The notes under the pieces are model-generated. The model saw only the letters and a list, made by a program, of their open reading frames with translations, was not told where the DNA came from and ran no database searches. From the sequence record MK482689.1: a stretch of 64,000 nucleotides of DNA, one strand, 5' to 3'. Shown here one piece after another: positions 19,938 through 38,046 of this stretch. This DNA is from Escherichia phage vB_EcoM_LMP33. Each line of letters begins with the position of its first letter. Within the stretch, counting starts at the first letter, position 1. The translations under genes and the position numbers were made by a program.

Positions 19938-20208
19938 AGAAAAGTGGGAGATTTTACCATTAGTCAGTGAAGGAGGTAATGGTTGTGAAATGTACATGAT
20001 ACGTGGTCATGTTCCAGAGCCAATTGCACTTGAGATGGTAAACAACTTTACAGATGGTTCTTACAAAGACTTAGGCGAACCAACTGTCAAGCAACAATGG
20101 GTTAAACCTGTACCAGACAGCACAGGTAACTGTAGTGTACTTTATCACGTTGTAGACCCTGCAAAATGCAAATCTGCAATGGCAGTAACAAACGTAACTT
20201 TTGATTGA
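19930..20208 (+). CDS. hypothetical protein
   Basis: 92-aa ORF. Confidence 0.3.
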   Translation: MAKEKWEILPLVSEGGNGCEMYMIRGHVPEPIALEMVNNFTDGSYKDLGEPTVKQQWVKPVPDSTGNCSVLYHVVDPAKCKSAMAVTNVTFD

Positions 20209-21101
20209 GAGAGAAAACTATGAAAACATCTATCCGTGTTACAGTTCATTCACCAACTAAAGGAACTCATGAAGAAGAGTTTAACATCATCCAATTTCCT
20301 TCTGGTGAGATTGGTGGGCACTTTTCGCCAGAGTTTGTTGATTTCACTGCTTATGCAGCATCATCCATCAACAATGTGATTATGATTGTAAAAGGTTATG
20401 ATAAGGATACATTGTTTGCTGTGGCACTTGCTAAAGAAGCAATTGATGATTTAATTCCTCATGATTATGCTTTAAAGACTGTCATCTTTTACTACTTACC
20501 AAATGCACGTTATGACCGTCACATGTTTAAAGGCGACGCAGCAGCTTTAAAGGTTTTTGCTAAACAGGTAAATGCAATGGGATTTGGTGCAGTCTGTGCA
20601 GTTGACCCTCACAGTTACGTTCCAGATAACCTGTTTAACTGCTTCCAGAGTATTCCTCAAAAGGAGATTGCAGTTCACTACGCAAATGACCCACTGATTG
20701 ATTACTTAGTAGCCCCAGATGCAGGTGCTGCTAAGAAGATTGCAGAGACTGCTAAAGAGGTGGATAAACCATACATCACAATGTCTAAGGTGCGTAACCT
20801 TAAGACTGGTGAAATTACTGGTATGCGAATCCTTGACGATGTTGATTTGACAGATAAAACTGTCATGATTCTGGATGATATTTGTGATGGAGGTCGAACC
20901 TTCATAGAAGCAGCCAAACATCTTCGTGAAGCAGGTGCAAAACGTGTGGAACTCTATGTAACTCATGGTATTTTCTCTAAAGATGTTGAAAACTTGCTTG
21001 ACAATGGTATTGACCATATCTACACTACAAACTCTTTAGGGGAAGCTAAAGACCGTGGCTTAACACATTATAGCCAAGTTACTGTAGCAAACCTTGATTA
21101 A
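20205..21101 (+). CDS. ribose-phosphate pyrophosphokinase-like protein (PRPP synthetase family; possible ADP-ribose pyrophosphokinase)
   Basis: 298 aa with a PRTase-type nucleotide-binding motif VMILDDICDGGRTF; directly upstream of a NAMPT-like gene. Confidence 0.6.
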   Translation: MREKTMKTSIRVTVHSPTKGTHEEEFNIIQFPSGEIGGHFSPEFVDFTAYAASSINNVIMIVKGYDKDTLFAVALAKEAIDDLIPHDYALKTVIFYYLPNARYDRHMFKGDAAALKVFAKQVNAMGFGAVCAVDPHSYVPDNLFNCFQSIPQKEIAVHYANDPLIDYLVAPDAGAAKKIAETAKEVDKPYITMSKVRNLKTGEITGMRILDDVDLTDKTVMILDDICDGGRTFIEAAKHLREAGAKRVELYVTHGIFSKDVENLLDNGIDHIYTTNSLGEAKDRGLTHYSQVTVANLD

Positions 21102-21146
21102 AACTTTATAGGGGCTTCCAAGCCCCATTTTGAGAGAGATTAAAAG

Positions 21147-22928
21147 ATGACTAAATCACTTTATGCAGTACCAGCAGGTTTAAATGCAGATGCTTACAAA
21201 TCTGGTCATGTTTACCAGTATCCTAGCGCAACAGAGTACTTGATGTTCAATCTGACACCACGTAGCGACAAATGGTTTAACAGCCCCTTAGCAATTGACG
21301 GTGTAGTGGCTTTTGGTATTCAACGTTTTGTTAAAGATTACTTGATAGACCACTGGAATGCCACTTTCTTTGAACGTGATAAAAAAGAAGCCATTGATGA
21401 AATCTTAGAAGTCATGAATGGTGTTCTGGGTAAAGATGCTATCGGTCGAGAGCATTGGGAAGCACTTCACGACTTAGGTTATCTACCAGTTGAAGTATAC
21501 GCTGTAGAAGAAGGCACAGTTGTTCCAATGCGTGTCCCGATGATTGTCTTTCAGAACACTGTTTCAGGTTTTCATTGGGTAGCAGGTTATCTGGAAGATG
21601 CTTTCTCTGCTGAAATTTGGAAGGCTTGCACCATTGCAACTATTGCATTGCATTACAAACGCATCTGTAAGAAGTGGGCTGACCTTACTTGTGACAATGA
21701 CTTACATTTACCTTATCAGTGCCATGATTTTGCTATGCGTGGTATGTCCGGCTTTACTGATGACGCATTTAACGCTGTAGGTCACTTAACCAGCTTTAAA
21801 GGGACTGATAGCTTCCCTGCTGTATACACGGCTAAACGAATCTATGGACAGTCCTACCCAATCTCTGATATTGGTAGTTCTGTACCAGCCACTGAGCACT
21901 CTGTAATGTGTGCAAACATTGCTTGGGAAGGTGGTAATGAGTTGATTGAAGAAGAAAGACGCTTTAAAGGTGAGTTACAAACCTTCCGTCGTTTCTTAAC
22001 AGAAACTTACCCAACAGGTATTGCAAGCATTGTTTCAGACACTTATAACTTCTGGAGAACTGTGTCAGAAATTTTACCAGCACTCCGTAAAGAAATTATG
22101 GAACGTGATGGCAAACTGGTAATTCGTCCTGACTCTGGAGACCCTGTACATATTGTCACAGGTTATAAAGCAATCCACTTAGAATGTGCTAAGAAGGCTT
22201 ATTACGAGCACCTAAGCAAGCTGGAAGCCAGTGACACAATGTTGAATGCTGTTCTTAACATGAAGCTTGAAAACATCAACTATGGTATTGCTGGATGGCT
22301 ACTGTCAGAAGGCTACGAAATGGTTGTTGATAGAGAAGACTTTGAAGTTGCTGACACAGTGATGTTGAAGAACGCTTATATGGTTGGCTCTGCAAACGTT
22401 GTAACACGCCCTGTAGCAGAGATTGATGGAGCTATTAAGACCTTGTATAACATCTTTGGAGGAACTATCAACTCTAAAGGTTTTAAGGTACTGGATGAGC
22501 ACATTGGCCTTATCTATGGCGACTCTATCACGTTGGAACGTGCAAACGAAATCCTGAAGCGCCTGTATGAAATGGGTTTTGCAAGCTCTAACGTAGTGTT
22601 TGGCGTAGGCTCTTACACTTACCAGTACATGACTCGTGACACCTTTGCATTTGCTGTCAAAGCAACCCTTGCAAGCATTGGTGGTAAAGAGATTATGCTT
22701 GCAAAAGACCCTAAAACAGATAGTGGTGTTAAGAAGTCTGCTTTTGGTGGTGTAGCACCTATGTGGGATGGTGAAAATCTGAAAGCTGTAGATGGCTATG
22801 GGTTCCAGAGCTTTGCAGATGCACTTGAACATCCAGCTTGTGCTTTACGTCTAGTCTTTAGTGACTCTGAGCAGTTCGGCTACACAACTCTTGGTGATAT
22901 TCGAAATAATATTGACAAGCAGCTTTAA
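21147..22928 (+). CDS. nicotinamide phosphoribosyltransferase-like protein (NadV/NAMPT family)
   Basis: 593 aa; N-terminus NADAYKSGHVYQYP resembles the NAMPT TDSYKxxHxxQYP signature; length fits. Confidence 0.65.
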   Translation: MTKSLYAVPAGLNADAYKSGHVYQYPSATEYLMFNLTPRSDKWFNSPLAIDGVVAFGIQRFVKDYLIDHWNATFFERDKKEAIDEILEVMNGVLGKDAIGREHWEALHDLGYLPVEVYAVEEGTVVPMRVPMIVFQNTVSGFHWVAGYLEDAFSAEIWKACTIATIALHYKRICKKWADLTCDNDLHLPYQCHDFAMRGMSGFTDDAFNAVGHLTSFKGTDSFPAVYTAKRIYGQSYPISDIGSSVPATEHSVMCANIAWEGGNELIEEERRFKGELQTFRRFLTETYPTGIASIVSDTYNFWRTVSEILPALRKEIMERDGKLVIRPDSGDPVHIVTGYKAIHLECAKKAYYEHLSKLEASDTMLNAVLNMKLENINYGIAGWLLSEGYEMVVDREDFEVADTVMLKNAYMVGSANVVTRPVAEIDGAIKTLYNIFGGTINSKGFKVLDEHIGLIYGDSITLERANEILKRLYEMGFASSNVVFGVGSYTYQYMTRDTFAFAVKATLASIGGKEIMLAKDPKTDSGVKKSAFGGVAPMWDGENLKAVDGYGFQSFADALEHPACALRLVFSDSEQFGYTTLGDIRNNIDKQL

Positions 22929-27159: not shown

Positions 27160-27708
27160 ATGAAGAAATTGATTCTAGGTTTGTGCTTAATGTTTACAGC
27201 ACACTTATCTTATGCAGTTGACTGCCCAGAGCTATCAATTAGCCAAAAAGTAAACATGTTAAAAGCTTACCAGTATGGTGAGAATAACATGGGTAAAGGT
27301 TGGGGTATCACTCTAGCTGCTATAGCCTTACAAGAGTCAGAGTTAGGTCTGAAGGTAGAGAATAAAAAGACACATGATTATGGTATTTTCCAGAATCACT
27401 TGAAGACTGTTGTAAAGCGTAACAAAATTAGTCCTAATGTGGCTAAAAAGAAACTCTTAAGAGACTTTGACTATGCTGCAAAGGAAACGCACAAAGAACT
27501 TGAATTTTGGACAAAGGTGCATGGTCAGCCAAAGTCAAAGAAAACTTTACAAAAAGTTTTAGCATCATATAATGCTGGGTATTCGTACAGAATCCCTAAA
27601 GCTAAGAAATATTCTCAAGATGTCTATAACAACATGAAAGTTATTGCTCAATGTGAATTTGCAACAAACATTTCTAAGGTAAATCATGAAAAAATTAAGA
27701 AAGTCTGA
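27160..27708 (+). CDS. secreted protein with lytic transglycosylase (SLT)-like motif
   Basis: Signal-peptide-like N-terminus MKKLILGLCLMFTAHLSYA; AIALQESELG...DYGIFQN resembles the SLT catalytic E-S...G-x-x-Q region. Confidence 0.4.
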   Translation: MKKLILGLCLMFTAHLSYAVDCPELSISQKVNMLKAYQYGENNMGKGWGITLAAIALQESELGLKVENKKTHDYGIFQNHLKTVVKRNKISPNVAKKKLLRDFDYAAKETHKELEFWTKVHGQPKSKKTLQKVLASYNAGYSYRIPKAKKYSQDVYNNMKVIAQCEFATNISKVNHEKIKKV

Positions 27709-28381
27709 TGAAGTACTGTGTCATGCTTATGACTTACATCCTCATGAGTTAGGTCTTGATTCCTGTGTATGGACTCCAGAACAGTGTAGGGATTTTGAAG
27801 ATACCGCAAGAGAAGTTGTATGTTCACTCGAAGAGTTCCACACATTAGAGACAATTGTGAATGTTGTAGATAAAGAGACTGGACAAACTATAGGTGTAAG
27901 GCGTGACAGCTTAGTCATAGTCAATAAAGACCTTGTAGAAAAAGGTAACCTTATCTTAGCAGACATTGATGGTGTTCTTACAAATTTTAATCACGAAGAT
28001 TACTCAACGGAATTGATTGATGGGTCATTTTCACAGTACACTAATTTGCTTGACTCTGTAAGAGCAAAACCAACGTATGTTTTCAATATTATTGATGCAA
28101 TTGCTAATCATGCCGCCATTGGACTCTTGACAGCGAGAGGTGAATCTCAGAGAATACCTACTGAGATGTTTTTAAGGCATTACATAGAGCATGATTACAT
28201 GCTTTTTATGCGTGGTTTTGGGACTAACTCTATAAGTGCAGAAAGTTTGAAAGTGAGGATGATTCAGTCTTGCATTCTGCCTTACTTTAATATAGTATGT
28301 TTTATAGAAGACACAGAGAAGAATGTGCAAAAGGTGAACAGAATCCTTCCACACATTAAAACCATGTTAGTTAAACATTGA
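27686..28381 (+). CDS. HAD-superfamily-like hydrolase (putative phosphatase/nucleotidase)
   Basis: LADIDGVLTNF resembles HAD motif I (DxDG[TV]); weaker motif II/IV candidates. Confidence 0.3.
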   Translation: MKKLRKSDEVLCHAYDLHPHELGLDSCVWTPEQCRDFEDTAREVVCSLEEFHTLETIVNVVDKETGQTIGVRRDSLVIVNKDLVEKGNLILADIDGVLTNFNHEDYSTELIDGSFSQYTNLLDSVRAKPTYVFNIIDAIANHAAIGLLTARGESQRIPTEMFLRHYIEHDYMLFMRGFGTNSISAESLKVRMIQSCILPYFNIVCFIEDTEKNVQKVNRILPHIKTMLVKH

Positions 28382-30014: not shown

Positions 30015-30216
30015 AAAGACACGAAAGCTTATCAGGTCAGCAGTGTTCATTGGACGAAATGAGGTCATCCCATTTACAGCAAATGATGTGATAGCTTACA
30101 GGAAGAACTTAGTATTCACTGACTGCTTACGTGGCTTCATCTCTGAACCATTGGAAGACTTTAAAAGTCGTTGTGGTAAAGGTATCATCATTCAAGAGGC
30201 AATTATTCATGGCTGA
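29989..30216 (+). CDS. hypothetical protein
   Basis: 75-aa ORF. Confidence 0.25.
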   Translation: MKVILARDKKTRKLIRSAVFIGRNEVIPFTANDVIAYRKNLVFTDCLRGFISEPLEDFKSRCGKGIIIQEAIIHG

Positions 30217-30409
30217 CTTCTGTAAAGATTGTTCTATCGAAATGTTCGGACGTGATACAGGTGACTTAAAAGGTCTTATCACTGAAGATGACTTTAAAGC
30301 TGGCTACGCAATGCCAGTAATCTGTGAAGGTTGTGGGTGCATCTGGGTAGACCACGAAGGGCAACGTGTAAAACCTTCAGAAGATAAAGAATCTTGGGAG
30401 AGATGTTAA
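30209..30409 (+). CDS. hypothetical Cys-rich small protein
   Basis: ATG at 30209 (MADFCKDCSIEM...CEGCGC); the track's longer version from 30131 is less likely. Confidence 0.25.
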   Translation: MADFCKDCSIEMFGRDTGDLKGLITEDDFKAGYAMPVICEGCGCIWVDHEGQRVKPSEDKESWERC

Positions 30410-31195
30410 ATGGGTATTGTAAAAATCATCAATGGCGATATCTTTGCAGCATTTGATAAAGGTAAGTTTGACATCATTGGTCACGGTTGCAACTGTATGA
30501 ATTTAATGGGTGCAGGTATCGCTGACAAGATTTCTAAACTTTACCCAAAAGCATATGAGACCGATACAGAAGTTTACCTCTATGCAGGTGGTATAGGTCA
30601 CAAACCCTGTGAAAATCTACTGGGTAATTTCTCTGTAGCACGTTTAGAACAAGGCCGTATAGCTAACCTTTACACTCAGCTTAAGACTGGTAAAGATGCC
30701 CGATACAGTGCTTTAGAGTCATCTTTGAAACAACTTAACAGATACTGTGAAGTCAATCAGTTGAAGAAAGTTGGGTTACCTATGATTGGTGCAGGTATCG
30801 GTGGACTAGACCCTCAAGCCGTCACAGTTATCATTAATCAGGTGATGAAGAGTGTAGATGTGTATCTTTATGTCTACGAAGGAGAGATGTACCACAAGTT
30901 ACGCTCAGGTTGGAAGAACTACTGTGAACCAGAATACTTTGCAGGTGTAGCAGTGTTCACAGATAACGCAGTTACCCTCTTCAGACGAAGAAAAGGTAAG
31001 ATACATCAAAGTAACCCTCCGGTTGAAAAGATGTCTCTAAGTAACGCTCTAGTTACCCACCTGTCGAAGAGCAATCACAGGATTGCAGTAACATTTGGCA
31101 GTGATGCAGATACTTATATCTATGCAAGAACTGATGAGGATATCGAGACAGTTTTCTCTTCACCAGAAGTTACCTTCTTAGACGCAAAGAACTAA
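30410..31195 (+). CDS. macro-domain protein (ADP-ribose binding/processing), putative
   Basis: N-terminus IINGDIFAAFDKGKFDIIGHGCNCMNLMGAGIA matches the macro-domain pattern (GDI...IVN.AN...G.GVA.AI). Confidence 0.45.
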   Translation: MGIVKIINGDIFAAFDKGKFDIIGHGCNCMNLMGAGIADKISKLYPKAYETDTEVYLYAGGIGHKPCENLLGNFSVARLEQGRIANLYTQLKTGKDARYSALESSLKQLNRYCEVNQLKKVGLPMIGAGIGGLDPQAVTVIINQVMKSVDVYLYVYEGEMYHKLRSGWKNYCEPEYFAGVAVFTDNAVTLFRRRKGKIHQSNPPVEKMSLSNALVTHLSKSNHRIAVTFGSDADTYIYARTDEDIETVFSSPEVTFLDAKN

Positions 31196-31264
31196 GAAAC
31201 TCTGTAGGATATTCACAATAGCCTAAGCCTTTCTTATCTGGTAAATTTTTCAGGTAAGGAGGGC

Positions 31265-31448
31265 TTTTTCATTTCAGAATTGTGCAGGTAGAGTTCTGTA
31301 GAGAAATCTGTAGAGAGAATTTTGAACTCCAAAGAGAAAATTCATTTTCAAACTGTGCAGATAATCTCCAAAGAGCTTTTTCATTTTCAAAACGTGCAGA
31401 CCACACTCAGGTCGGGCAAGAAAAATCATTTTAGATTTGTGCAGGTAG
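31265..31448. repeat. four direct repeats (A/T-run)TCATTT(T)CA(A/G)A(A/C)(T/C)(T/G)GTGCAG, plus interleaved TCTGTAGAGA and CTCCAAAGAG duplicates
   Basis: Copies ending in GTGCAG at about 31287, 31360, 31400 and 31446; no credible ORF in the region. Confidence 0.6.
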
Positions 31449-31460
31449 GTTTTTATAGAG

Positions 31461-31503
31461 AGCCAGACCAACCCCTCTCCCCCTCTTACTCCCCCTCTCC
31501 CCA
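31461..31503. other. polypyrimidine C-rich tract (CCCCTCTCCCCCTCTTACTCCCCCTCTCCCC)
   Basis: Unusual C-rich low-complexity run in an AT-rich genome, immediately after the repeat cluster. Confidence 0.5.
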
Positions 31504-31654
31504 AAAGTCAAGAGAAAAATTTGTAGCGGATTGAAAAATAATTCTTGATTTGTGTTCTGTTTTGTGGTAGTTGTGTGCGCCCGTTTCATTACAGTTTTGC
31601 CAAAAATATTTTTAAAATTTTTTCTTGACTCTTTGAACGTGGTTATCTAGTATT

Positions 31655-31716
31655 TGCATCAACGGGGAGGGAATGACCTTCCCCACTAAATAAAGTCCTA
31701 AACTGGAGATTCAAAA
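31655..31716 (+). promoter_or_regulatory. type A leader element (hairpin GGGGAGGG-AATGA-CCTTCCCC + conserved RBS), preceded by TTGACT-N17-TAGTAT
   Basis: Conserved CAACGGGGAGGGAATGACCTTCCCCACTAAATAAAGTCCTAAACTGGAGATTCAAAAATG; one of 7 copies. Confidence 0.55.
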
Positions 31717-32100
31717 ATGGCATATCGTGCACCTAAATTCATCAACAAAGACAACTTTCGCAACGCACTGGAGAAGTCACTTGATGAGAATTTTAAAGGT
31801 AACATTATCGTTGTTCACGCATTCAATTTTAAGTATGATGTAAACGGGAATAGAATCAACCATTACACGGCAACCATGTTAGATGGTACACTTTCAAGTG
31901 AAAAAGCCGTACTAAATGCACTGGCAGGACGTGGAAAGGTATTAGTAAGATGTGATAAGAGACGTTATCAGGGCGGCGCATATGGTTATGATGATGCTGT
32001 TTACCATCTTGAAAATATGGGCTATCAAGTAGAAAAAGCTGGAGCATCACAAATCATCGGCAGCGATGGTTATGTAACTATCTTCAAAATTAACAAATAA
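31717..32100 (+). CDS. hypothetical protein (cassette ORF 1)
   Basis: 127 aa; ATG 7-8 nt after conserved GGAG RBS of a type A leader. Confidence 0.45.
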   Translation: MAYRAPKFINKDNFRNALEKSLDENFKGNIIVVHAFNFKYDVNGNRINHYTATMLDGTLSSEKAVLNALAGRGKVLVRCDKRRYQGGAYGYDDAVYHLENMGYQVEKAGASQIIGSDGYVTIFKINK

Positions 32101-32186
32101 AGTACTTTACAAGGGGCTTATAGTTCGATAAAGTAAGCCCCAGATAAAGAGCTTTACCACTCAATCCTAAATTGGAGAACTTAAAA
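32101..32186 (+). promoter_or_regulatory. type B leader element (hairpin GGGGCTTA..TAAGCCCC + AGATAAAGAGCTTTACCACT + conserved RBS)
   Basis: Begins within the stop region (..AATAAAGTACTTTACA) of the upstream ORF; possible TTTACA-N17-TAAAGT promoter overlapping the hairpin; one of 6 copies. Confidence 0.5.
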
Positions 32187-32480
32187 ATGGCTATTATCAA
32201 AAACGTTGTAATTACTGCAAAGACTCGTGATGACGCTCGCGTTATGGCTAAAAAGTTATGCGGGAAAGTGGTTGACAACGGAAAACAATCTGCTGTAAGG
32301 TGGGGCGTGAAGGTTGATAAACAGTTGAAGTTAAAAAATTCACCGATAAACCTTTTTACATGTGTAAACACTATCGGGAAGACAAATGTATACACGAAAA
32401 AGGCATACATTAGACGCGTAGCATTAACATCCCCCATTCGTACAATGAGAAGTTATGCAAAGCTGAAAATTAACAAATAA
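32187..32480 (+). CDS. hypothetical basic protein (cassette ORF 2)
   Basis: 97 aa from ATG at 32187 (MAIIKN...), the start conserved within the leader repeat; track start at 32172 is a TTG. Confidence 0.45.
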   Translation: MAIIKNVVITAKTRDDARVMAKKLCGKVVDNGKQSAVRWGVKVDKQLKLKNSPINLFTCVNTIGKTNVYTKKAYIRRVALTSPIRTMRSYAKLKINK

Positions 32481-32565
32481 AGTACTTTACAGGGGGCTTA
32501 AAAGCTGATATCTTAAGCCCCAGATAAAGAGCTTTACCACTAAATCCTAAACTGGAGATTCAAAA
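32481..32565 (+). promoter_or_regulatory. type B leader element
   Basis: AGTACTTTACAGGGGGCTTAAAAGCTGATATCTTAAGCCCCAGATAAAGAGCTTTACCACTAAATCCTAAACTGGAGATTCAAAAATG. Confidence 0.5.
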
Positions 32566-33078
32566 ATGAAAACTGTAGACGCTACCTTTGAAGTTGTAAA
32601 AGAAAAATTTTCCATCATTTACGAAGCAGTTAATTGCTTTGAAGCAAGCCATAATCTTGATAATTGGGAATTTACAGATGACCATCAAGGCGGTGTGACG
32701 ATTAAAAATCCTAGCTGTCAGCGTAATGAATTTAAATATGCAATCCCTTTACATTACAGCCTTAAACAGCTTTCAAGTGACTATGCAAAACAAGGCCGGG
32801 AAAACCCATCAAAAGAGGCTTACATCAGCTTACAGAAAGAACTAGAAAGAGATTTAGAGGCTTCAGAATATAACATCGCCGCGAAAGTTGTAGATGCAAA
32901 CGGTAGCACGGTTTTAGAGAGTTTTTATATTGGTTATGCTTTCGATTGGTGCTATCGTGACGGCGATGATTTAGAGGATAGACTAAAAGAAGAGGTGAAC
33001 AACGCAGACGCAGAATCTGAAGTATTAGAACGTTTGGAATCGTTGAAAGACTCAGTGATGAATATCTTTAAGAACTAA
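32566..33078 (+). CDS. hypothetical acidic protein (cassette ORF 3)
   Basis: 170-aa ORF after type B leader. Confidence 0.45.
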   Translation: MKTVDATFEVVKEKFSIIYEAVNCFEASHNLDNWEFTDDHQGGVTIKNPSCQRNEFKYAIPLHYSLKQLSSDYAKQGRENPSKEAYISLQKELERDLEASEYNIAAKVVDANGSTVLESFYIGYAFDWCYRDGDDLEDRLKEEVNNADAESEVLERLESLKDSVMNIFKN

Positions 33079-33170
33079 ATAGATTTCTTTACACGGGGTT
33101 ACCAGACTGATAAGATAGCCCCAGATAAAGAGCTTTATTCAAATCAACCCTTAAACTAGGAGATTCTAAA
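33079..33170 (+). promoter_or_regulatory. type B leader element (divergent variant)
   Basis: ..CACGGGGTTACCAGACTGATAAGATAGCCCCAGATAAAGAGCTTTATTCAAATCAACCCTTAAACTAGGAGATTCTAAAATG. Confidence 0.45.
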
Positions 33171-33467
33171 ATGAAATTATCAAATAAAGTCCGTGAAAAT
33201 TTAAGCAAGTTACTTAATAAAATTGATTTCATTGAAACATCAAGGAATAGTCATGATGTTATGGAATGGTTACACGGAAAAATCAAAGGCCGTCGTGTAG
33301 TGATTTGCTTATGGAACAGTTGCAGGGAGTATAAAAAACCTGTATTGCAAGTCAATATTTATGATGATACTTTTAAAAGTCCTGTAAAGTCTAAAAGCGA
33401 TTTATTAGAATCCTATGAGATAACTGTAAATGGCAAAGTATCACGTAAAGAGGAAACACCATGTTAA
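33171..33467 (+). CDS. hypothetical protein (cassette ORF 4)
   Basis: 98-aa ORF. Confidence 0.4.
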   Translation: MKLSNKVRENLSKLLNKIDFIETSRNSHDVMEWLHGKIKGRRVVICLWNSCREYKKPVLQVNIYDDTFKSPVKSKSDLLESYEITVNGKVSRKEETPC

Positions 33468-33793
33468 TGACTGGTATCACTGCAATCATTGCCATTTTCG
33501 CGCTATATAAGGCATATAAAGCCTATAATCTGGCAAGTAAGGCAATCACACAACAGGTTAATAATAACCTTGTAATGAGCTTTCTAGAGCGTTTAAGTGA
33601 TGAACAATTAAAACGGCTAGAAATGAGCTTTAGATTCAGGGCGAGAACTTATCAAATCAGTGACATTTTCAAAGATAATTTTCAATTAGTCGATGATTAT
33701 AATTCTCTGATAAATGCTTTAAATATTAGTGACTTAAAAGATTATCACGCTGTAATTGTTCAAGAATTGAGCAAACGAAAACAAAACTGTTGA
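33461..33793 (+). CDS. hypothetical membrane protein (cassette ORF 5)
   Basis: 110 aa, N-terminal TM helix (MLMTGITAIIAIFALY); start overlaps the upstream stop; no leader repeat. Confidence 0.4.
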   Translation: MLMTGITAIIAIFALYKAYKAYNLASKAITQQVNNNLVMSFLERLSDEQLKRLEMSFRFRARTYQISDIFKDNFQLVDDYNSLINALNISDLKDYHAVIVQELSKRKQNC

Positions 33794-33882
33794 CACTGAT
33801 TTTTAGATAGATTAAATTACACATCAACGGGGAGGTAATAACCTCCCTACTAAATAAAGTCCTTAAACTAGGAGATTCAAAA
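33785..33882 (+). promoter_or_regulatory. type A leader element with sigma70-like promoter (TTGACA-N17-TAAATT) + hairpin + RBS
   Basis: TTGACA 33790-33795, TAAATT 33813-33818, hairpin GGGGAGGTAATAACCTCCC, then conserved TAAACTAGGAGATTCAAAAATG. Confidence 0.6.
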
Positions 33883-34155
33883 ATGTATACTACTAACAAC
33901 GGTCGTACTTTAAATGTCACTCTACGTCACTATGTTGATGGTGTAATGTGCTTTGATGATTTACAAGCTGAGCAACACATCTTAGATTGGCAAGTAGCAG
34001 GACTCCAAAAAACTGCTACCGGATACGGGAAAAAGATTCCAACTAGCTGGAAAGTACACTATGAAGGCCGTTTGCGCAGAATTTATCAAGATGTGCAAAG
34101 CAATAGCGCATCGAGTTACATTATAGTAAAAGGCAAAAAACTGCATTTAATGTAA
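33883..34155 (+). CDS. hypothetical protein (cassette ORF 6)
   Basis: 90-aa ORF. Confidence 0.4.
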   Translation: MYTTNNGRTLNVTLRHYVDGVMCFDDLQAEQHILDWQVAGLQKTATGYGKKIPTSWKVHYEGRLRRIYQDVQSNSASSYIIVKGKKLHLM

Positions 34156-34241
34156 AGTACTTTACAAGGGGCTTATAGTTCGATAAAGTAAGCCCCAGAT
34201 AAAGAGCTTTACCACTAAATCCTAAATTGGAGAACTTAAAA
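34156..34241 (+). promoter_or_regulatory. type B leader element
   Basis: Near-identical to the copy at 32101-32186. Confidence 0.5.
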
Positions 34242-34646
34242 ATGGCTATTAATAACCGTGAATTATCAATTTTAAAAGCACGTTTGACCGTTAACCGGAT
34301 TAATGTTATCACGTCATCAGCACCAGATGAAACACTGCAAAACATTATTGGGAAGATTCAAAGTGTTATCTTAGACGTTGAAAGCGTAAAAAATTCATTG
34401 GCTGACGTTGCAGCAGGTATCACACTAGACGGTGCGCAATATGAAATGTCCGACATGTTAGGCAAATCTAAGGTAATGAATAAAGAGTTAGATTTGAAAA
34501 TGTTCCGATTTGCTGTTAAAGTGTGGCTATCTGTCGAGTATGATGCTAACTTTGCAATCGCTGACTTTTTCGCCACTTGGTTGCAGCGTAATTTGACTAA
34601 TCATGACTTCCGCGATATCTGTGATGCAATTTATGCAGAACTCTAA
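34242..34646 (+). CDS. hypothetical protein (cassette ORF 7)
   Basis: ATG at 34242 (MAINNREL...); track start at 34227 is a TTG. Confidence 0.45.
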   Translation: MAINNRELSILKARLTVNRINVITSSAPDETLQNIIGKIQSVILDVESVKNSLADVAAGITLDGAQYEMSDMLGKSKVMNKELDLKMFRFAVKVWLSVEYDANFAIADFFATWLQRNLTNHDFRDICDAIYAEL

Positions 34647-34655
34647 AAAATTTTG

Positions 34656-34747
34656 TTGACACTGGTTTTTAGATAGATTAAATTACACATCAACGGGGAG
34701 GGAATGACCTTCCCCACTAAATAAAGTCCTAAACTGGAGATTCAAAA
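34656..34747 (+). promoter_or_regulatory. type A leader element with sigma70-like promoter (TTGACA-N17-TAAATT)
   Basis: TTGACACTGGTTTTTAGATAGATTAAATTACACATCAACGGGGAGGGAATGACCTTCCCC... Confidence 0.6.
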
Positions 34748-34951
34748 ATGGCTATTATTAATGGTTTAACCATTGAAACTACACACATCAAAGATATCAA
34801 AGTTGGTGATATAGTCCTTTCCCACGGCGTAGAAAAAACTGTCACTGCAAAGGATATCAAAGAGGATTCTTTCATGGGTAGGACTCTCTTCGGTGATTCT
34901 TATTGCTTAGGCTATCTTGCAGTTTTAAAAGTTGTCAAAAATAACAAATAA
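34748..34951 (+). CDS. hypothetical small protein (cassette ORF 8)
   Basis: 67 aa (MAIINGLTIE...). Confidence 0.4.
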   Translation: MAIINGLTIETTHIKDIKVGDIVLSHGVEKTVTAKDIKEDSFMGRTLFGDSYCLGYLAVLKVVKNNK

Positions 34952-35037
34952 AGTACTTTACAAGGGGCTTAAAAGTTGATAACTTAAGCCTCAGATAAAG
35001 AGCTTTACCACTAAATCCTAAACTGGAGATTCTAAAA
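34952..35037 (+). promoter_or_regulatory. type B leader element
   Basis: AGTACTTTACAAGGGGCTTAAAAGTTGATAACTTAAGCCTCAGATAAAGAGCTTTACCACTAAATCC... Confidence 0.5.
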
Positions 35038-35286
35038 ATGATGAACTACTTTAACATTCCCGATACCTGTAGATTATTGACACAAGAAGAAAATTTGGGT
35101 AAACCTTTCATTTACCACATGCCAGATAACACGGCAAAAACTTATAGTTACAATGTTAACCGTTTCACCGCATACGCTGCAAAGAACGGCTATAGGTTGG
35201 TTACTCAAAAAGTGATGCTGGTTACAATCGCTGACGAGGTTCCTACGGTTGCAGTTAAACTAATTTTCTCAAAGAAAGTTAAATAA
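35038..35286 (+). CDS. hypothetical protein (cassette ORF 9)
   Basis: 82-aa ORF. Confidence 0.4.
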   Translation: MMNYFNIPDTCRLLTQEENLGKPFIYHMPDNTAKTYSYNVNRFTAYAAKNGYRLVTQKVMLVTIADEVPTVAVKLIFSKKVK

Positions 35287-35373
35287 AGTACTTTACAAGG
35301 GGCTTATAGTTCGATAAAGTAAGCCCCAGATAAAGAGCTTTACCACTAAATCCTTAAACTAGGAGATTCAAAA
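35287..35373 (+). promoter_or_regulatory. type B leader element
   Basis: Near-identical to 32101-32186 and 34156-34241. Confidence 0.5.
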
Positions 35374-35916
35374 ATGAAATGCTATCACGGAACTACTCAA
35401 GAAAATTTCCTCAACCTGATTAATAACGGTGATAAACCATCAGGCGCATGGAATTGTTCGGATATGGACGGCAATTTTTACGTGTATCCAGAAAATAAAA
35501 TCTATGGCGACGATGAGGAAGAAATAGCATCAGAGGGCATTCAGCAAGCTCTAGGCAATGCCACTATCACCGCAGCTTTTCAGATGAAGACTCAAAATAT
35601 TGTTATCTTAGAACTCGATATTCCAGAGGATGAGCTAAATGATGATTATTCTTGTGATAATATGTCGAGTGTAGCAAGTTTTACAGAGTACTTTGATGTA
35701 AATTGGATTAAAAAGGTCTATACAACAGAGTTTAATGCGATGTTTTCGCCTTTTTGTCTTCCTTCATTGGATAACCCAAATTTAAACTATCTTGACGAGT
35801 CTCTGGAGCTTCTTGCTAAAAGTGTACAACAGTCGGACAGTATTCATGTTTTTTGTGACATCATGGATACACTGACAGGAAACATTGCAGAAGAGGATTT
35901 AAAGAGCTTTTTCTAA
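35374..35916 (+). CDS. hypothetical acidic protein (cassette ORF 10)
   Basis: 180-aa ORF. Confidence 0.45.
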   Translation: MKCYHGTTQENFLNLINNGDKPSGAWNCSDMDGNFYVYPENKIYGDDEEEIASEGIQQALGNATITAAFQMKTQNIVILELDIPEDELNDDYSCDNMSSVASFTEYFDVNWIKKVYTTEFNAMFSPFCLPSLDNPNLNYLDESLELLAKSVQQSDSIHVFCDIMDTLTGNIAEEDLKSFF

Positions 35917-35982
35917 AAACCTATGCAATCACCTTATAAACACTAATCAGCCCCTTGTAGGGGCTTTTAGAGGGCTTAAATC

Positions 35983-36216
35983 ATGCTTACAACCGTTTAT
36001 CTCATCCTCTCAATTTGTAATGGCCATTCATGTGACTTTAAAGGGCTTGAAGAGTTTACAGGAAGTAAAGAAAATGCTATTCAAGTTTGCCAGATAGCAA
36101 GGAAAGACTATCCCGCTAGTGATGATATACAATGTTACTTTAAGACAGAAGATGACGACGGAATCTATTTCGACAGTGTTGACGGTCAGTATGAAATTAT
36201 CATTGAAAAAGACTAG
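35983..36216 (+). CDS. hypothetical small protein (cassette ORF 11)
   Basis: 77 aa; preceded by a different hairpin (AGCCCCTTGTAGGGGCT), not a type A/B leader. Confidence 0.35.
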   Translation: MLTTVYLILSICNGHSCDFKGLEEFTGSKENAIQVCQIARKDYPASDDIQCYFKTEDDDGIYFDSVDGQYEIIIEKD

Positions 36217-36229
36217 ACAAGCCTGATAA

Positions 36230-36308
36230 AAATCTGTAAATTGTCAATCAACGGGGAGGGAATGACCTTCCCCACTAAATAAAGTCCTTAAACTAGGAGA
36301 TTCAAAAA
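36230..36308 (+). promoter_or_regulatory. type A leader element
   Basis: CTGTAAATTGTCAATCAACGGGGAGGGAATGACCTTCCCCACTAAATAAAGTCCTTAAACTAGGAGATTCAAAAAATG. Confidence 0.55.
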
Positions 36309-36650
36309 ATGGCTTATGTAACCGTAATTACCGATAAAGCTGGCGCATCTTGGTCAACTCAGGTTAGTGATAAGATGTCACCTATGCAGTGCCTAAAATA
36401 CTTTGAACAGTGGAACAAAGGCGAGGACACAAGCCCCTTTCAAGTGATGCAGATTATCCATGTAGACAACGAAGGGAATAAAACGACGCTGAATAGTGAG
36501 TACTATGCAAGCCGTTTTGAAACGAGAAGTAAAACAATGAAACTTTTACGTGAATCCGGTTATGCCCATATCGCCGCGTTAATCTGGGATGACCTGCTAA
36601 AAAGTCAGCGTATCAGCTATGTAAAACCTGAAAAAATATTCATCAGTTAA
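36309..36650 (+). CDS. hypothetical protein (cassette ORF 12)
   Basis: 113-aa ORF. Confidence 0.45.
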   Translation: MAYVTVITDKAGASWSTQVSDKMSPMQCLKYFEQWNKGEDTSPFQVMQIIHVDNEGNKTTLNSEYYASRFETRSKTMKLLRESGYAHIAALIWDDLLKSQRISYVKPEKIFIS

Positions 36651-36805
36651 TCAATAACTTACAAAAAAACTTTTAAAAAAGTGTTGACAATACCCATTGA
36701 CATTGGTAACTTTGTTCGAGGGGGTTATCTAAAAGGGATTCACTTAAAAGATTCTTTATAGATAAGCTCAAAAAATTACTTGCAATCAACTATCAAAACA
36801 AGTAA

Positions 36806-36870
36806 ATTACTAATCAACGGGAAGGCAATAACCTCCCCACTAAATAAAGTCCTAAACTGGAGATTCTAAA
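36806..36870 (+). promoter_or_regulatory. type A leader element (variant hairpin GGGAAGGCAATAACCTCCCC)
   Basis: Preceded at 36685-36710 by tandem TTGACA boxes (TTGACAATACCCATTGACA). Confidence 0.5.
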
Positions 36871-37401
36871 ATGAACAAATTTCAAGCTATCAACTTCATT
36901 CGTTCAAATGCTGTAATGTCTAAGCCTGTAAAAGATACATACGAATTCCGTTGTAATGGGGTACATTTCGCAACAATCACCAAATCAGAAAACGGGGCTT
37001 ATTACGTTCATCGTCGTAATGTTTCAACCGTTGTAGTCTCTCACTTTATGCAAGCTGTAGCGGAATTATTACCGTTATTCTTAGAGATTTACTTAGATGA
37101 GTGTAAAAACGTTCACAACCACGTTAAAAGCCTTTTAAACGGTTATAAAATGGCTTATGAACGCTCTATCAAGTCCTTAAACAAGTTTTACAATGCACCT
37201 GCAAATACTGTTTCAATGGCTTATGATGTAAACGGTGAGTTAGTTAGTCTCTTTAAAGTGGAAGAAATTAAGCTGTATAATTTACGTCCTAGTGGTTACT
37301 CTAAGACTCTTGGTGAAGGTTTATCCTTTAATATCAAGAACTTAGAAAAAACTTTAAAAGACATTGAAAAAGATATTGACGAGACAATCAAAAGTCTGTA
37401 A
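36871..37401 (+). CDS. hypothetical protein (cassette ORF 13)
   Basis: 176-aa ORF. Confidence 0.45.
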   Translation: MNKFQAINFIRSNAVMSKPVKDTYEFRCNGVHFATITKSENGAYYVHRRNVSTVVVSHFMQAVAELLPLFLEIYLDECKNVHNHVKSLLNGYKMAYERSIKSLNKFYNAPANTVSMAYDVNGELVSLFKVEEIKLYNLRPSGYSKTLGEGLSFNIKNLEKTLKDIEKDIDETIKSL

Positions 37402-37467
37402 ATTGTCAATCAACGGGGAGGGAATGACCTTCCCCACTAAATAAAATCCTAAACTGGAGTTATCAAG
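37400..37467 (+). promoter_or_regulatory. type A leader element
   Basis: CTGTAAATTGTCAATCAACGGGGAGGGAATGACCTTCCCCACTAAATAAAATCCTAAACTGGAG... Confidence 0.55.
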
Positions 37468-37731
37468 ATGGAAAACGTAGAATTAACCACACTTTTACAA
37501 ATTGCAACCGACAAAGAAGATGTAGCATTATTTCACCGTATCGAAAGTGATTTGTTCAATGGTGAAATCATCAAAGAATCTTACGAAGTTGTCGGATTCA
37601 AAGATGGTAAAGCGTTTGGCTTTTTTGACCTCGATAAAGGCAACGCTGTTACAAAGTATGATGTTGTATCTTGTGAGATTCTTACAAAATACAACGAAAA
37701 AAGGCTTGCAACATACGCCAATATGCAGTAA
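37468..37731 (+). CDS. hypothetical protein (cassette ORF 14)
   Basis: 87-aa ORF. Confidence 0.4.
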   Translation: MENVELTTLLQIATDKEDVALFHRIESDLFNGEIIKESYEVVGFKDGKAFGFFDLDKGNAVTKYDVVSCEILTKYNEKRLATYANMQ

Positions 37732-37797
37732 ATTACTAATCAACGGGGGATGACCTCCCCCCCACTAAGTAAAGTCCTAAACTGGAGAATCTAAATT
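37731..37797 (+). promoter_or_regulatory. type A leader element (variant hairpin GGGGGATGACCTCCCCC)
   Basis: TAAATTACTAATCAACGGGGGATGACCTCCCCCCCACTAAGTAAAGTCCTAAACTGGAGAATCTAAATTATG. Confidence 0.5.
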
Positions 37798-38046
37798 ATG
37801 TCAACTATCCGCGTAACTGTTAATGCTTATGGCTGCCACGAACTTGATGCAAAATTCGATATCGGTGGAACAGATAACACCTTTGACCTTATCAAAATGC
37901 TGATTCAGCAGGTGCTACCAGATTATAACCCTACCGATGACTTTTGGAAGGACGCTGTAAAAGAAGCCATAAACGAGGAATATCACTACCACTACTGGGG
38001 AGAAAAAATCGTCTCCCTATACTACAGCAAACAAGGTTACAACTAA
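37798..38046 (+). CDS. hypothetical protein (cassette ORF 15)
   Basis: 82-aa ORF; last gene before the long noncoding region. Confidence 0.4.
   Translation: MSTIRVTVNAYGCHELDAKFDIGGTDNTFDLIKMLIQQVLPDYNPTDDFWKDAVKEAINEEYHYHYWGEKIVSLYYSKQGYN

Follow-up and report, generated by a model that had tools for sequence, protein, structure and literature searches.

A two-domain macro protein of a Felix O1-like phage as a candidate counter-defence factor

Which ADP-ribose adduct, if any, is the target of a phage macro-domain protein encoded in the same genome as an NAD+ salvage pair? This question is raised by a gene of Escherichia phage vB_EcoM_LMP33 (sequence record MK482689.1), of which we analyzed a stretch of 64,000 nucleotides, hereafter the window. 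The phage is a Felixounavirus, one of the Felix O1-like myoviruses of E. coli, Salmonella, and Shigella. The open reading frame (ORF) of the macro gene lies exactly where the original prediction had it, and the motif quoted there is present in the ORF list (Table 1). Its product joins a macrodomain of the TARG1/DarG/SCO6735 (ALC1-like) class to a C-terminal domain that matched its own family only, and it is homologous to two phage proteins with different assigned activities, T4 Tk.4/AdfM and Adpp of Vibrio phage Gary. An AdfM-type role, in which the protein would strip ADP-ribose from phage DNA, is the most likely reading, with a probability that we put at roughly 0.45.

The macro annotation of the gene is already public and hence not new, and counter-defence roles of the family were published in 2025-2026. 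Two features appear to be undescribed. In Ounavirinae the protein has two domains, the C-terminal one being an orphan module, and the macro gene is present, outside the operon, in the type of genome where the NAD+ reconstitution pathway NARP1 was discovered, NARP1 having been first defined on genes 79-80 of Bas63, a Felixounavirus.

An ALC1-like macrodomain with glutamine at the catalytic lysine position

The macro-domain call was borne out by Pfam Macro PF01661, which scored 32.1 bits against a gathering threshold of 22 (E = 1.2e-7) and aligned over nearly the whole model (positions 2-117 of 118). PHROG 335 matched end to end (2e-113), and the protein has the three-layer alpha/beta/alpha macro fold. 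To assign a class, we used a set of 31 homologues for the family profile and for conservation. The profile matched TARG1 (4e-17), M. tuberculosis DarG (5e-16), SCO6735 (2e-15), and Poa1p (4e-15), as well as BT1257 and T. aquaticus DarG (1e-13); other macro classes reached only about 3e-3. By both sequence and structure, the macrodomain is nearer to ALC1-like members than to the MacroD, viral Mac1, or PARG classes, and TARG1/OARD1 was the top PDB sequence match of the protein. Human TARG1/OARD1 and yeast Poa1p, which share this class, are eukaryotic housekeeping enzymes, Poa1p being the classical phosphatase of ADP-ribose (ADPR)-1''-phosphate. In PADLOC and NCBIfam only DarG matched, and only its macro half aligned: model positions 18-146 of 329 in PADLOC, and positions 4-154 of 338 in NCBIfam NF048014, at 48 bits where the equivalog cut-off is 250. 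Because of the profile matches on the one hand and these sub-cut-off, macro-only DarG scores on the other, we place the domain in the ALC1-like class, yet the protein itself is no DarG.

Two loops, both putative ADP-ribose-binding elements, are invariant or nearly so among the homologues and align to the corresponding loops of TARG1. These are the Gly-rich loop 1, MGAGIA (residues 33-38), and the diphosphate-binding loop PMIGAGIGG, in which P124, G127, and G129 are invariant and conservation is 90% or higher at I126, A128, I130, and G132. The latter pairs with PRIGCGLD of TARG1 and places Gly131 at the position of TARG1 D125. Asn28 pairs with N23 of PhiKZ gp104 (hhalign), and the role of the equivalent asparagine has been documented (PMC9411070, PMC13309987). 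Gln90 replaces the catalytic lysine of TARG1 (K84), DarG (K80, as in DarG2), and PhiKZ AdfM (K78), so that the window protein lacks this residue. In SCO6735, Gln85 likewise stands in place of the lysine; it is essential for hydrolysis of ADP-ribosylated thymidine in DNA and is held by Asn27 (PMC9411070). As far as the alignments go, the active-site arrangement is that described for SCO6735, an active enzyme. Neither a missing macro hit nor a loss of the ligand-binding residues, the two grounds named for abandoning the original prediction, was observed; the loops, Gln90, and Asn28 are conserved. SCO6735 of Streptomyces coelicolor and BT1257 differ from the window protein in being cellular stand-alone macrodomains with a longer mobile loop after the glutamine and no C-terminal domain; SCO6735 has been described under a RecA-NDp-type promoter (PMC9411070).

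The missing canonical lysine would also suit a non-catalytic binder or sponge that holds ADPR or ADPR-based signals, for example those of Thoeris, or that blocks an ADP-ribosyltransferase through the surface of its C-terminal domain. Catalytically dead SCO6735, DarG, and TARG1 still inhibit DarT by interaction (PMC9411070), DarG2 with its second, DarT-binding domain offers an analogous architecture, and phage sponges of ADPR-derived signals are known. However, the Asn/Gln pair essential for SCO6735 catalysis is invariant across the family, Adpp is an active enzyme with the same glutamine, and the C-terminal domain has no homology to that of DarG. We consider this the least probable of the explanations weighed here.

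The class assignment also brings in erasure of some other adduct: ADP-ribosylation (ADPr) of RNA (CmdTAC-type mRNA modification, or linkage to the RNA 2'-OH or phosphate), ADPr of protein, or deacetylation of O-acetyl-ADP-ribose. Glu-ADPr, O-acetyl-ADPR, and nucleic-acid-linked ADPr are all hydrolyzed by TARG1/OARD1, ADP-ribosylated protein is a further substrate of SCO6735 (PMC9411070), and RNA-targeting ADP-ribosylating defences exist (PMC11618068, PMC11833690). Public names of orthologues are "putative phosphatase", "macro domain protein", and, in one public record, "O-acetyl-ADP-ribose deacetylase"; such database names, however, are homology transfers. The TARG1 dyad is gone, with Lys84 replaced by Gln90 and Asp125 by Gly131, and the activities shown for phage homologues are two others, none being on these substrates. 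A role of this kind is therefore very unlikely.

Evidence for AdfM-type and Adpp-type activities

The window protein aligns to residues 2-152 of the 155 of T4 Tk.4 with 35% identity (82 bits, E = 2e-24), and to Adpp, gp137 of Gary, over the full length with 27% identity (52 bits, E = 4e-14). In T4, a transposon screen and a clean knockout identified tk.4 as the cause of resistance to DarTG2, a DNA-ADP-ribosylating system, and its macrodomain product was renamed AdfM, for anti-DarT factor (preprint 10.1101/2025.11.20.689424). In Gary, the Adpp gene lies between adps and namat; Adpp turns ADPR-1''-phosphate into ADPR in vitro, and NARP1-AP requires it to prevail against aRES, a RES-domain defence (preprint 10.64898/2026.01.28.702374). 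Tk.4 and Adpp are 35% identical, and being related to each other they form one family. This family is found in about 2,800 of 50,697 phage records, nearly always as a single copy (2,804 places in 2,799 records). By analogy with these two homologues, both functions that the original prediction had offered gain support: an ADP-ribosylation eraser, since T4 AdfM is needed against DarTG2, and a component that would act with the salvage pair against NAD+- or ADP-ribose-based immunity, since Adpp feeds NARP1 against aRES.

PhiKZ gp104 is a further relative (23% identity, E = 2e-4). It is the AdfM of a chimallivirus, a DarG2-like antitoxin biochemically proven to remove DarT2-installed ADPr from DNA (PMC13309987), and has in common with the window protein a phage-encoded DarG-class macrodomain and the conserved asparagine (N23/N28). 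In contrast to the window protein, it carries Lys78 in place of Gln90, is imported into the phage nucleus, and consists of a single domain. The name AdfM thus denotes two non-orthologous phage macrodomains in two papers of 2025-2026, the Gln-type T4 Tk.4 and the Lys-type PhiKZ gp104.

The discrete characters speak for the T4 type. HGCNC, NLYTQ, the lack of an insertion after the glutamine, and GAGI are common to Tk.4 and the window family, and both genes are early-region, single-copy phage genes. Adpp and most NARP1-adjacent macro proteins instead show HQxNC, N[LV]YGQY followed by an insertion of 5-7 residues, and G[CA]GL, a signature that is our own observation on about 12 sequences and has no published definition. 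Adpp itself, with HQCNC, NVYGQY plus a 7-residue insertion, GCGL, and no C-terminal domain, shares with the window protein the phage macrodomain family, the glutamine position, and the occurrence of both Adps and Namat in the phage; the window protein does not carry the signature. Tk.4 differs in being a bare macrodomain, the window protein having 104 additional C-terminal residues as a separate domain, and T4 has no NARP1, which the window phage has. A neighbour-joining tree with 300 bootstraps recovered the two-domain family as monophyletic at 80%, with the NARP1-adjacent macro proteins scattered over the tree. It gave no supported assignment of orthology to AdfM or to Adpp, the two-domain family having no supported attachment to the Gary clade either. 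The two activities are thus only weakly distinguishable by such sequence characters.

Several points weigh against an AdfM-type role. The grouping of the window clade with the T4 clade has a bootstrap value of 1%. The short post-Gln loop is also found in the TARG1 outgroup and is therefore ancestral; a longer loop is present in SCO6735, which hydrolyzes DNA-ADPr (PMC9411070), and one NARP1-adjacent lineage, Acinetobacter phiAbaA1, is intermediate, combining HGCNC with TQ. Adpp, also with glutamine, is as close to T4 AdfM (35%) as the window protein is. Since Adpp is nearer to TARG1, SCO6735, and DarG than to Poa1p, likeness to DarG leaves room for phosphatase activity, and with NARP1 in the same phage a phosphatase would clearly have work to do. 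For T4, the support is purely genetic and taken from a preprint, and the anti-DarTG2 phenotype has been demonstrated for T4 alone. Our literature search returned no paper tying Felixounavirus or Ounavirinae to macro domains or DarTG2, and the text of the Bas63 PhageMaP preprint holds no data on the macro gene.

The sequence matches of Adpp itself are TARG1 (1.7e-7), SCO6735 (7e-7), DarG (5e-4), and Poa1p (0.79). We rejected the ranking of PDB matches as a discriminator, as this validated phosphatase also ranks TARG1, SCO6735, and DarG above Poa1p. Its nearness to these proteins, along with its 35% identity to Tk.4, raises the question of bifunctional phage enzymes.

The NAD+ context bears most directly on the Adpp-type alternative. 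The NAD+ salvage pair noted in the original prediction proved to be NARP1 (Adps and Namat), with NCBIfam scores of 123.6 bits (PRPS-like) and 469 bits (Nampt-like) and with 38% (Adps) and 37% (Namat) identity to their counterparts in Gary's validated NARP1-AP operon. In the ORF list, Adps has a TTG start. The macro gene is the last in a long co-directional block that runs from NARP1 through rIIA, rIIB, a lysin gene, a gene resembling polynucleotide kinase (PNK) genes, and several small ORFs. It starts 7.5 kb past the end of Namat, with about 13 genes between, and is thus not in the NARP1 operon, taken as within two genes of the pair. The published screen for NARP1-associated macro genes covered two genes on either side, and a macro gene was in the operon in 15% of NARP1 phages (preprint 10.64898/2026.01.28.702374).

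Here, the protein would be an ADPR-1''-phosphate phosphatase that removes the 1''-phosphate left by RES-domain NAD+ phosphorylases (aRES), after which the phage's own Adps and Namat would rebuild NAD+. It may be a distally encoded third component of NARP1-AP, either as its sole function or in addition to DNA de-ADP-ribosylation. NARP1 alone fails against aRES, which is found in E. coli, Klebsiella, and Enterobacter, and such a phosphatase would therefore be useful to this phage, which carries the archetypal NARP1. Homology to the biochemically validated Adpp, and the single family that Adpp and T4 AdfM form, agree with this, as does the single copy of the macro family in nearly every phage, and a two-gene screen would miss a macro gene 7.5 kb away. 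The divergent Ounavirinae phage Wc4 keeps the order adps, namat, rIIA, rIIB, ..., macro, with 45% (Adps), 51% (Namat), and 42% (macro) identity; in metagenomic relatives with 33-36% macro identity the order rIIA-rIIB-...-macro is kept, this being the part that the comparison covered. Such co-occurrence of NARP1 with the two-domain macro protein fits a functional link but equally fits vertical inheritance of a conserved backbone. The gene's place outside the operon, in contrast to that of Adpp inside the adps/namat pair, also counts against a phosphatase role, as do the missing signature, the lower identity to Adpp (27%) than to AdfM of T4 (35%), a phage without NARP1, and the fact that the published NARP1-AP table lists neither Escherichia nor Felix O1-like phages. 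We regard this as a serious rival, possible though on balance unlikely.

Returning to the AdfM-type role, we infer a substrate, a countered defence system, and a catalytic mechanism as follows. The protein would be a counter-defence enzyme expressed with the rIIA/rIIB gene block. Its N-terminal macrodomain would bind ADP-ribose and hydrolyze the C1'' bond of the distal ribose, the likeliest substrate being ADP-ribose placed by DarT2-type toxins on thymidine of single-stranded phage DNA. In this way it may function like T4 Tk.4/AdfM, as an orphan antitoxin resembling DarG that takes the modification off and lets replication go on. Asn28 would position Gln90, which in turn would orient the distal ribose, and, as in the mechanism put forward for SCO6735, catalysis would proceed through an activated water without a catalytic lysine. 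The C-terminal domain, which is specific to the lineage, is predicted to pack on the macrodomain. AdfM-type and Adpp-type roles are not mutually exclusive: both reactions would use one and the same pocket to cleave the C1'' substituent of the distal ribose, so that one enzyme doing both is chemically plausible.

The C-terminal domain

The original prediction described the N-terminal 150 residues and missed the domain that follows. In a structure prediction of the whole protein (predicted TM score, pTM, 0.88), the C-terminal domain is confidently predicted as one helix, six beta-strands, and one helix, packed on the macrodomain. Conservation of this region extends to 19 two-domain homologues, with overall identity down to 32%. 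Its junction motif is W/F-x-N-[YF]-x-x-P-x-x-F-[DA]-G; P174 and G179 are invariant, Y236 nearly so.

The domain has no Pfam family. An exhaustive HMMER profile search of 1.84 billion proteins and a structure comparison that covered BFVD each matched its own family only. A word-indexed search with the C-terminal 102 residues alone gave no match, a limitation of the index, since the exhaustive search found the family. Weak multi-stretch profile matches in proteins of 400-2,800 residues were spurious (PQQ beta-propellers and repeat proteins), and a 114-residue protein that looked like a stand-alone version has its first residue within the final macro strand and is a two-domain protein cut short. 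The isoelectric point ranges from 4.8 to 9.7 across the family, which does not support a domain that binds nucleic acid through conserved basic charge. Homology to the C-terminal domain of DarG was rejected, there being no detectable match in PADLOC, NCBIfam, or a further comparison. DarG2 has about 180 model positions past the macro match in the 338-position model, in contrast to a domain of about 100 residues here. The second domain of DarG2 binds DarT2 (PMC13309987), and the likeness of the window domain to it is only an analogy.

Close macro-only relatives exist, namely P0020 and Erwinia phage vEam_PM_6 (43.5% identity across the macro part), and by this comparison the C-terminal domain has therefore been gained or lost within this phage group. 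We infer that the domain confers specificity or a further function that is not enzymatic, for example to bind a toxin or substrate. A broader version of this idea would make the protein a two-module counter-defence factor, separate from DarG in origin but convergent with it in logic. It would act on both thymidine-ADPr DNA and ADPR-1''-phosphate, with the ADPR recycled by NARP1, and its C-terminal module would block a host ADP-ribosyltransferase or NADase or tether the protein to single-stranded DNA or the replisome. We consider this combination distinctly unlikely; if true, a single gene would connect the phage's responses to DarTG2-type and aRES-type immunity. As a compact, confidently predicted domain with no relative in the searched libraries, fused to a known enzyme class, the C-terminal domain is an accessible starting point for work on a new protein module.

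Gene neighbourhood and meaning for Felix O1-like phages

Across the 4 kb around the macro gene, DNA identity is 99.7% with Escherichia phage vB_EcoM_LMP25 and 92-98% with over 100 further Felixounavirus members, and the gene was matched at full length in 257 phage records. The coordinates of the gene, its parts, and its expression signals are given in Table 1; the terminator-like hairpin closes the rIIA-rIIB-...-macro block.

Table 1. Features of the macro gene and its possible functional partner, in window positions
Feature	Coordinates	Strand	Basis
Two-domain macro protein gene, complete (261 codons + TAA)	30410..31195	+	ORF list
Macro domain, residues 1-157, TARG1/DarG/SCO6735 (ALC1-like) class	30410..30880	+	
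C-terminal orphan domain, residues 158-261	30881..31192	+	
Asn28 codon (motif HGCNC)	30491..30493	+	Invariant in 31 sequences; equivalent to DarG N22, PhiKZ AdfM N23, SCO6735 N27
Gln90 codon (motif NLYTQ)	30677..30679	+	Invariant; alignments to TARG1 and PhiKZ gp104
Diphosphate-binding loop PMIGAGIGG, residues 124-132	30779..30805	+	Conservation and TARG1 alignment
Shine-Dalgarno-like GGGAGAG, 7 nt 5' of the macro gene ATG	30396..30402	+	Read from sequence
TAA of the preceding small ORF, abutting the macro gene ATG	30407-30409	+	Read from sequence
Intrinsic-terminator-like hairpin, 17 pairs + T-run, 30 nt past the macro gene stop	31225..31276	+	Terminator scan and sequence
NARP1 pair, possible functional partner (Adps 20205-21101, Namat 21147-22928)	20205..22928	+	NCBIfam and Gary homology

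No darT was found beside the macro gene: the flanking ORFs tested have no significant Pfam match, and relatives annotate hypothetical proteins, spanins, and PNK there. The small ORF immediately upstream (30209-30409) encodes a CxxC...CxxC, zinc-ribbon-like protein and is translationally coupled to the macro gene through a TAAATG junction. It is conserved within Felixounavirus; as a conserved partner of the macro protein it was rejected, since three divergent carriers of the two-domain protein do not keep it. The ORF at 27686-28381 is a polynucleotide kinase in the annotation of relatives. This label is thinly supported, because the ORF has no Pfam match at E<=1 and its homologues in divergent contigs have only weak or faint HAD_PNKP matches.

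The repeat region and cassette array that the original prediction had placed beside the gene were both seen downstream. A 520-bp non-coding stretch with short repeats follows the macro gene; at 31269-31461 it holds 3-5 copies of a unit of about 35-40 nt ending in ...CATTTT(C/A)AA..GTGCAG (families D8 and D9), with a C/T-rich tract at 31472-31503 downstream of these units. A sigma-70-like promoter, TTGACT-17-TAGTAT, lies at 31625-31653. In the array itself (31657-37800), each small gene is preceded by a repeated unit of 65-99 nt (families D1-D7), which consists of a GC-rich hairpin, either of the type GGGGCTTA...TAAGCCCC or of the type GGGGAGGGAATGACCTTCCCC, and then a conserved leader, ...AAATAAAGTCCTAAACTGGAGATTCAAAAATG, with Shine-Dalgarno sequence and start codon. 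These repeats could promote cassette shuffling by recombination. No Rfam family was found in the 29-41 kb part of the window.

Felix O1-like phages are widely used in typing, biocontrol, and therapy of Salmonella and E. coli, and Bas63 is a counter-defence model for NARP1. If the protein is an anti-DarTG2 factor, a helper of NARP1 against aRES, or both, it would explain part of the host range of these phages and add a predictor for phage-host matching. With two activities assigned within one family at 35% identity, a member that resides in a NARP1 genome but apart from the operon offers a natural way to ask whether a single macrodomain can serve for both.
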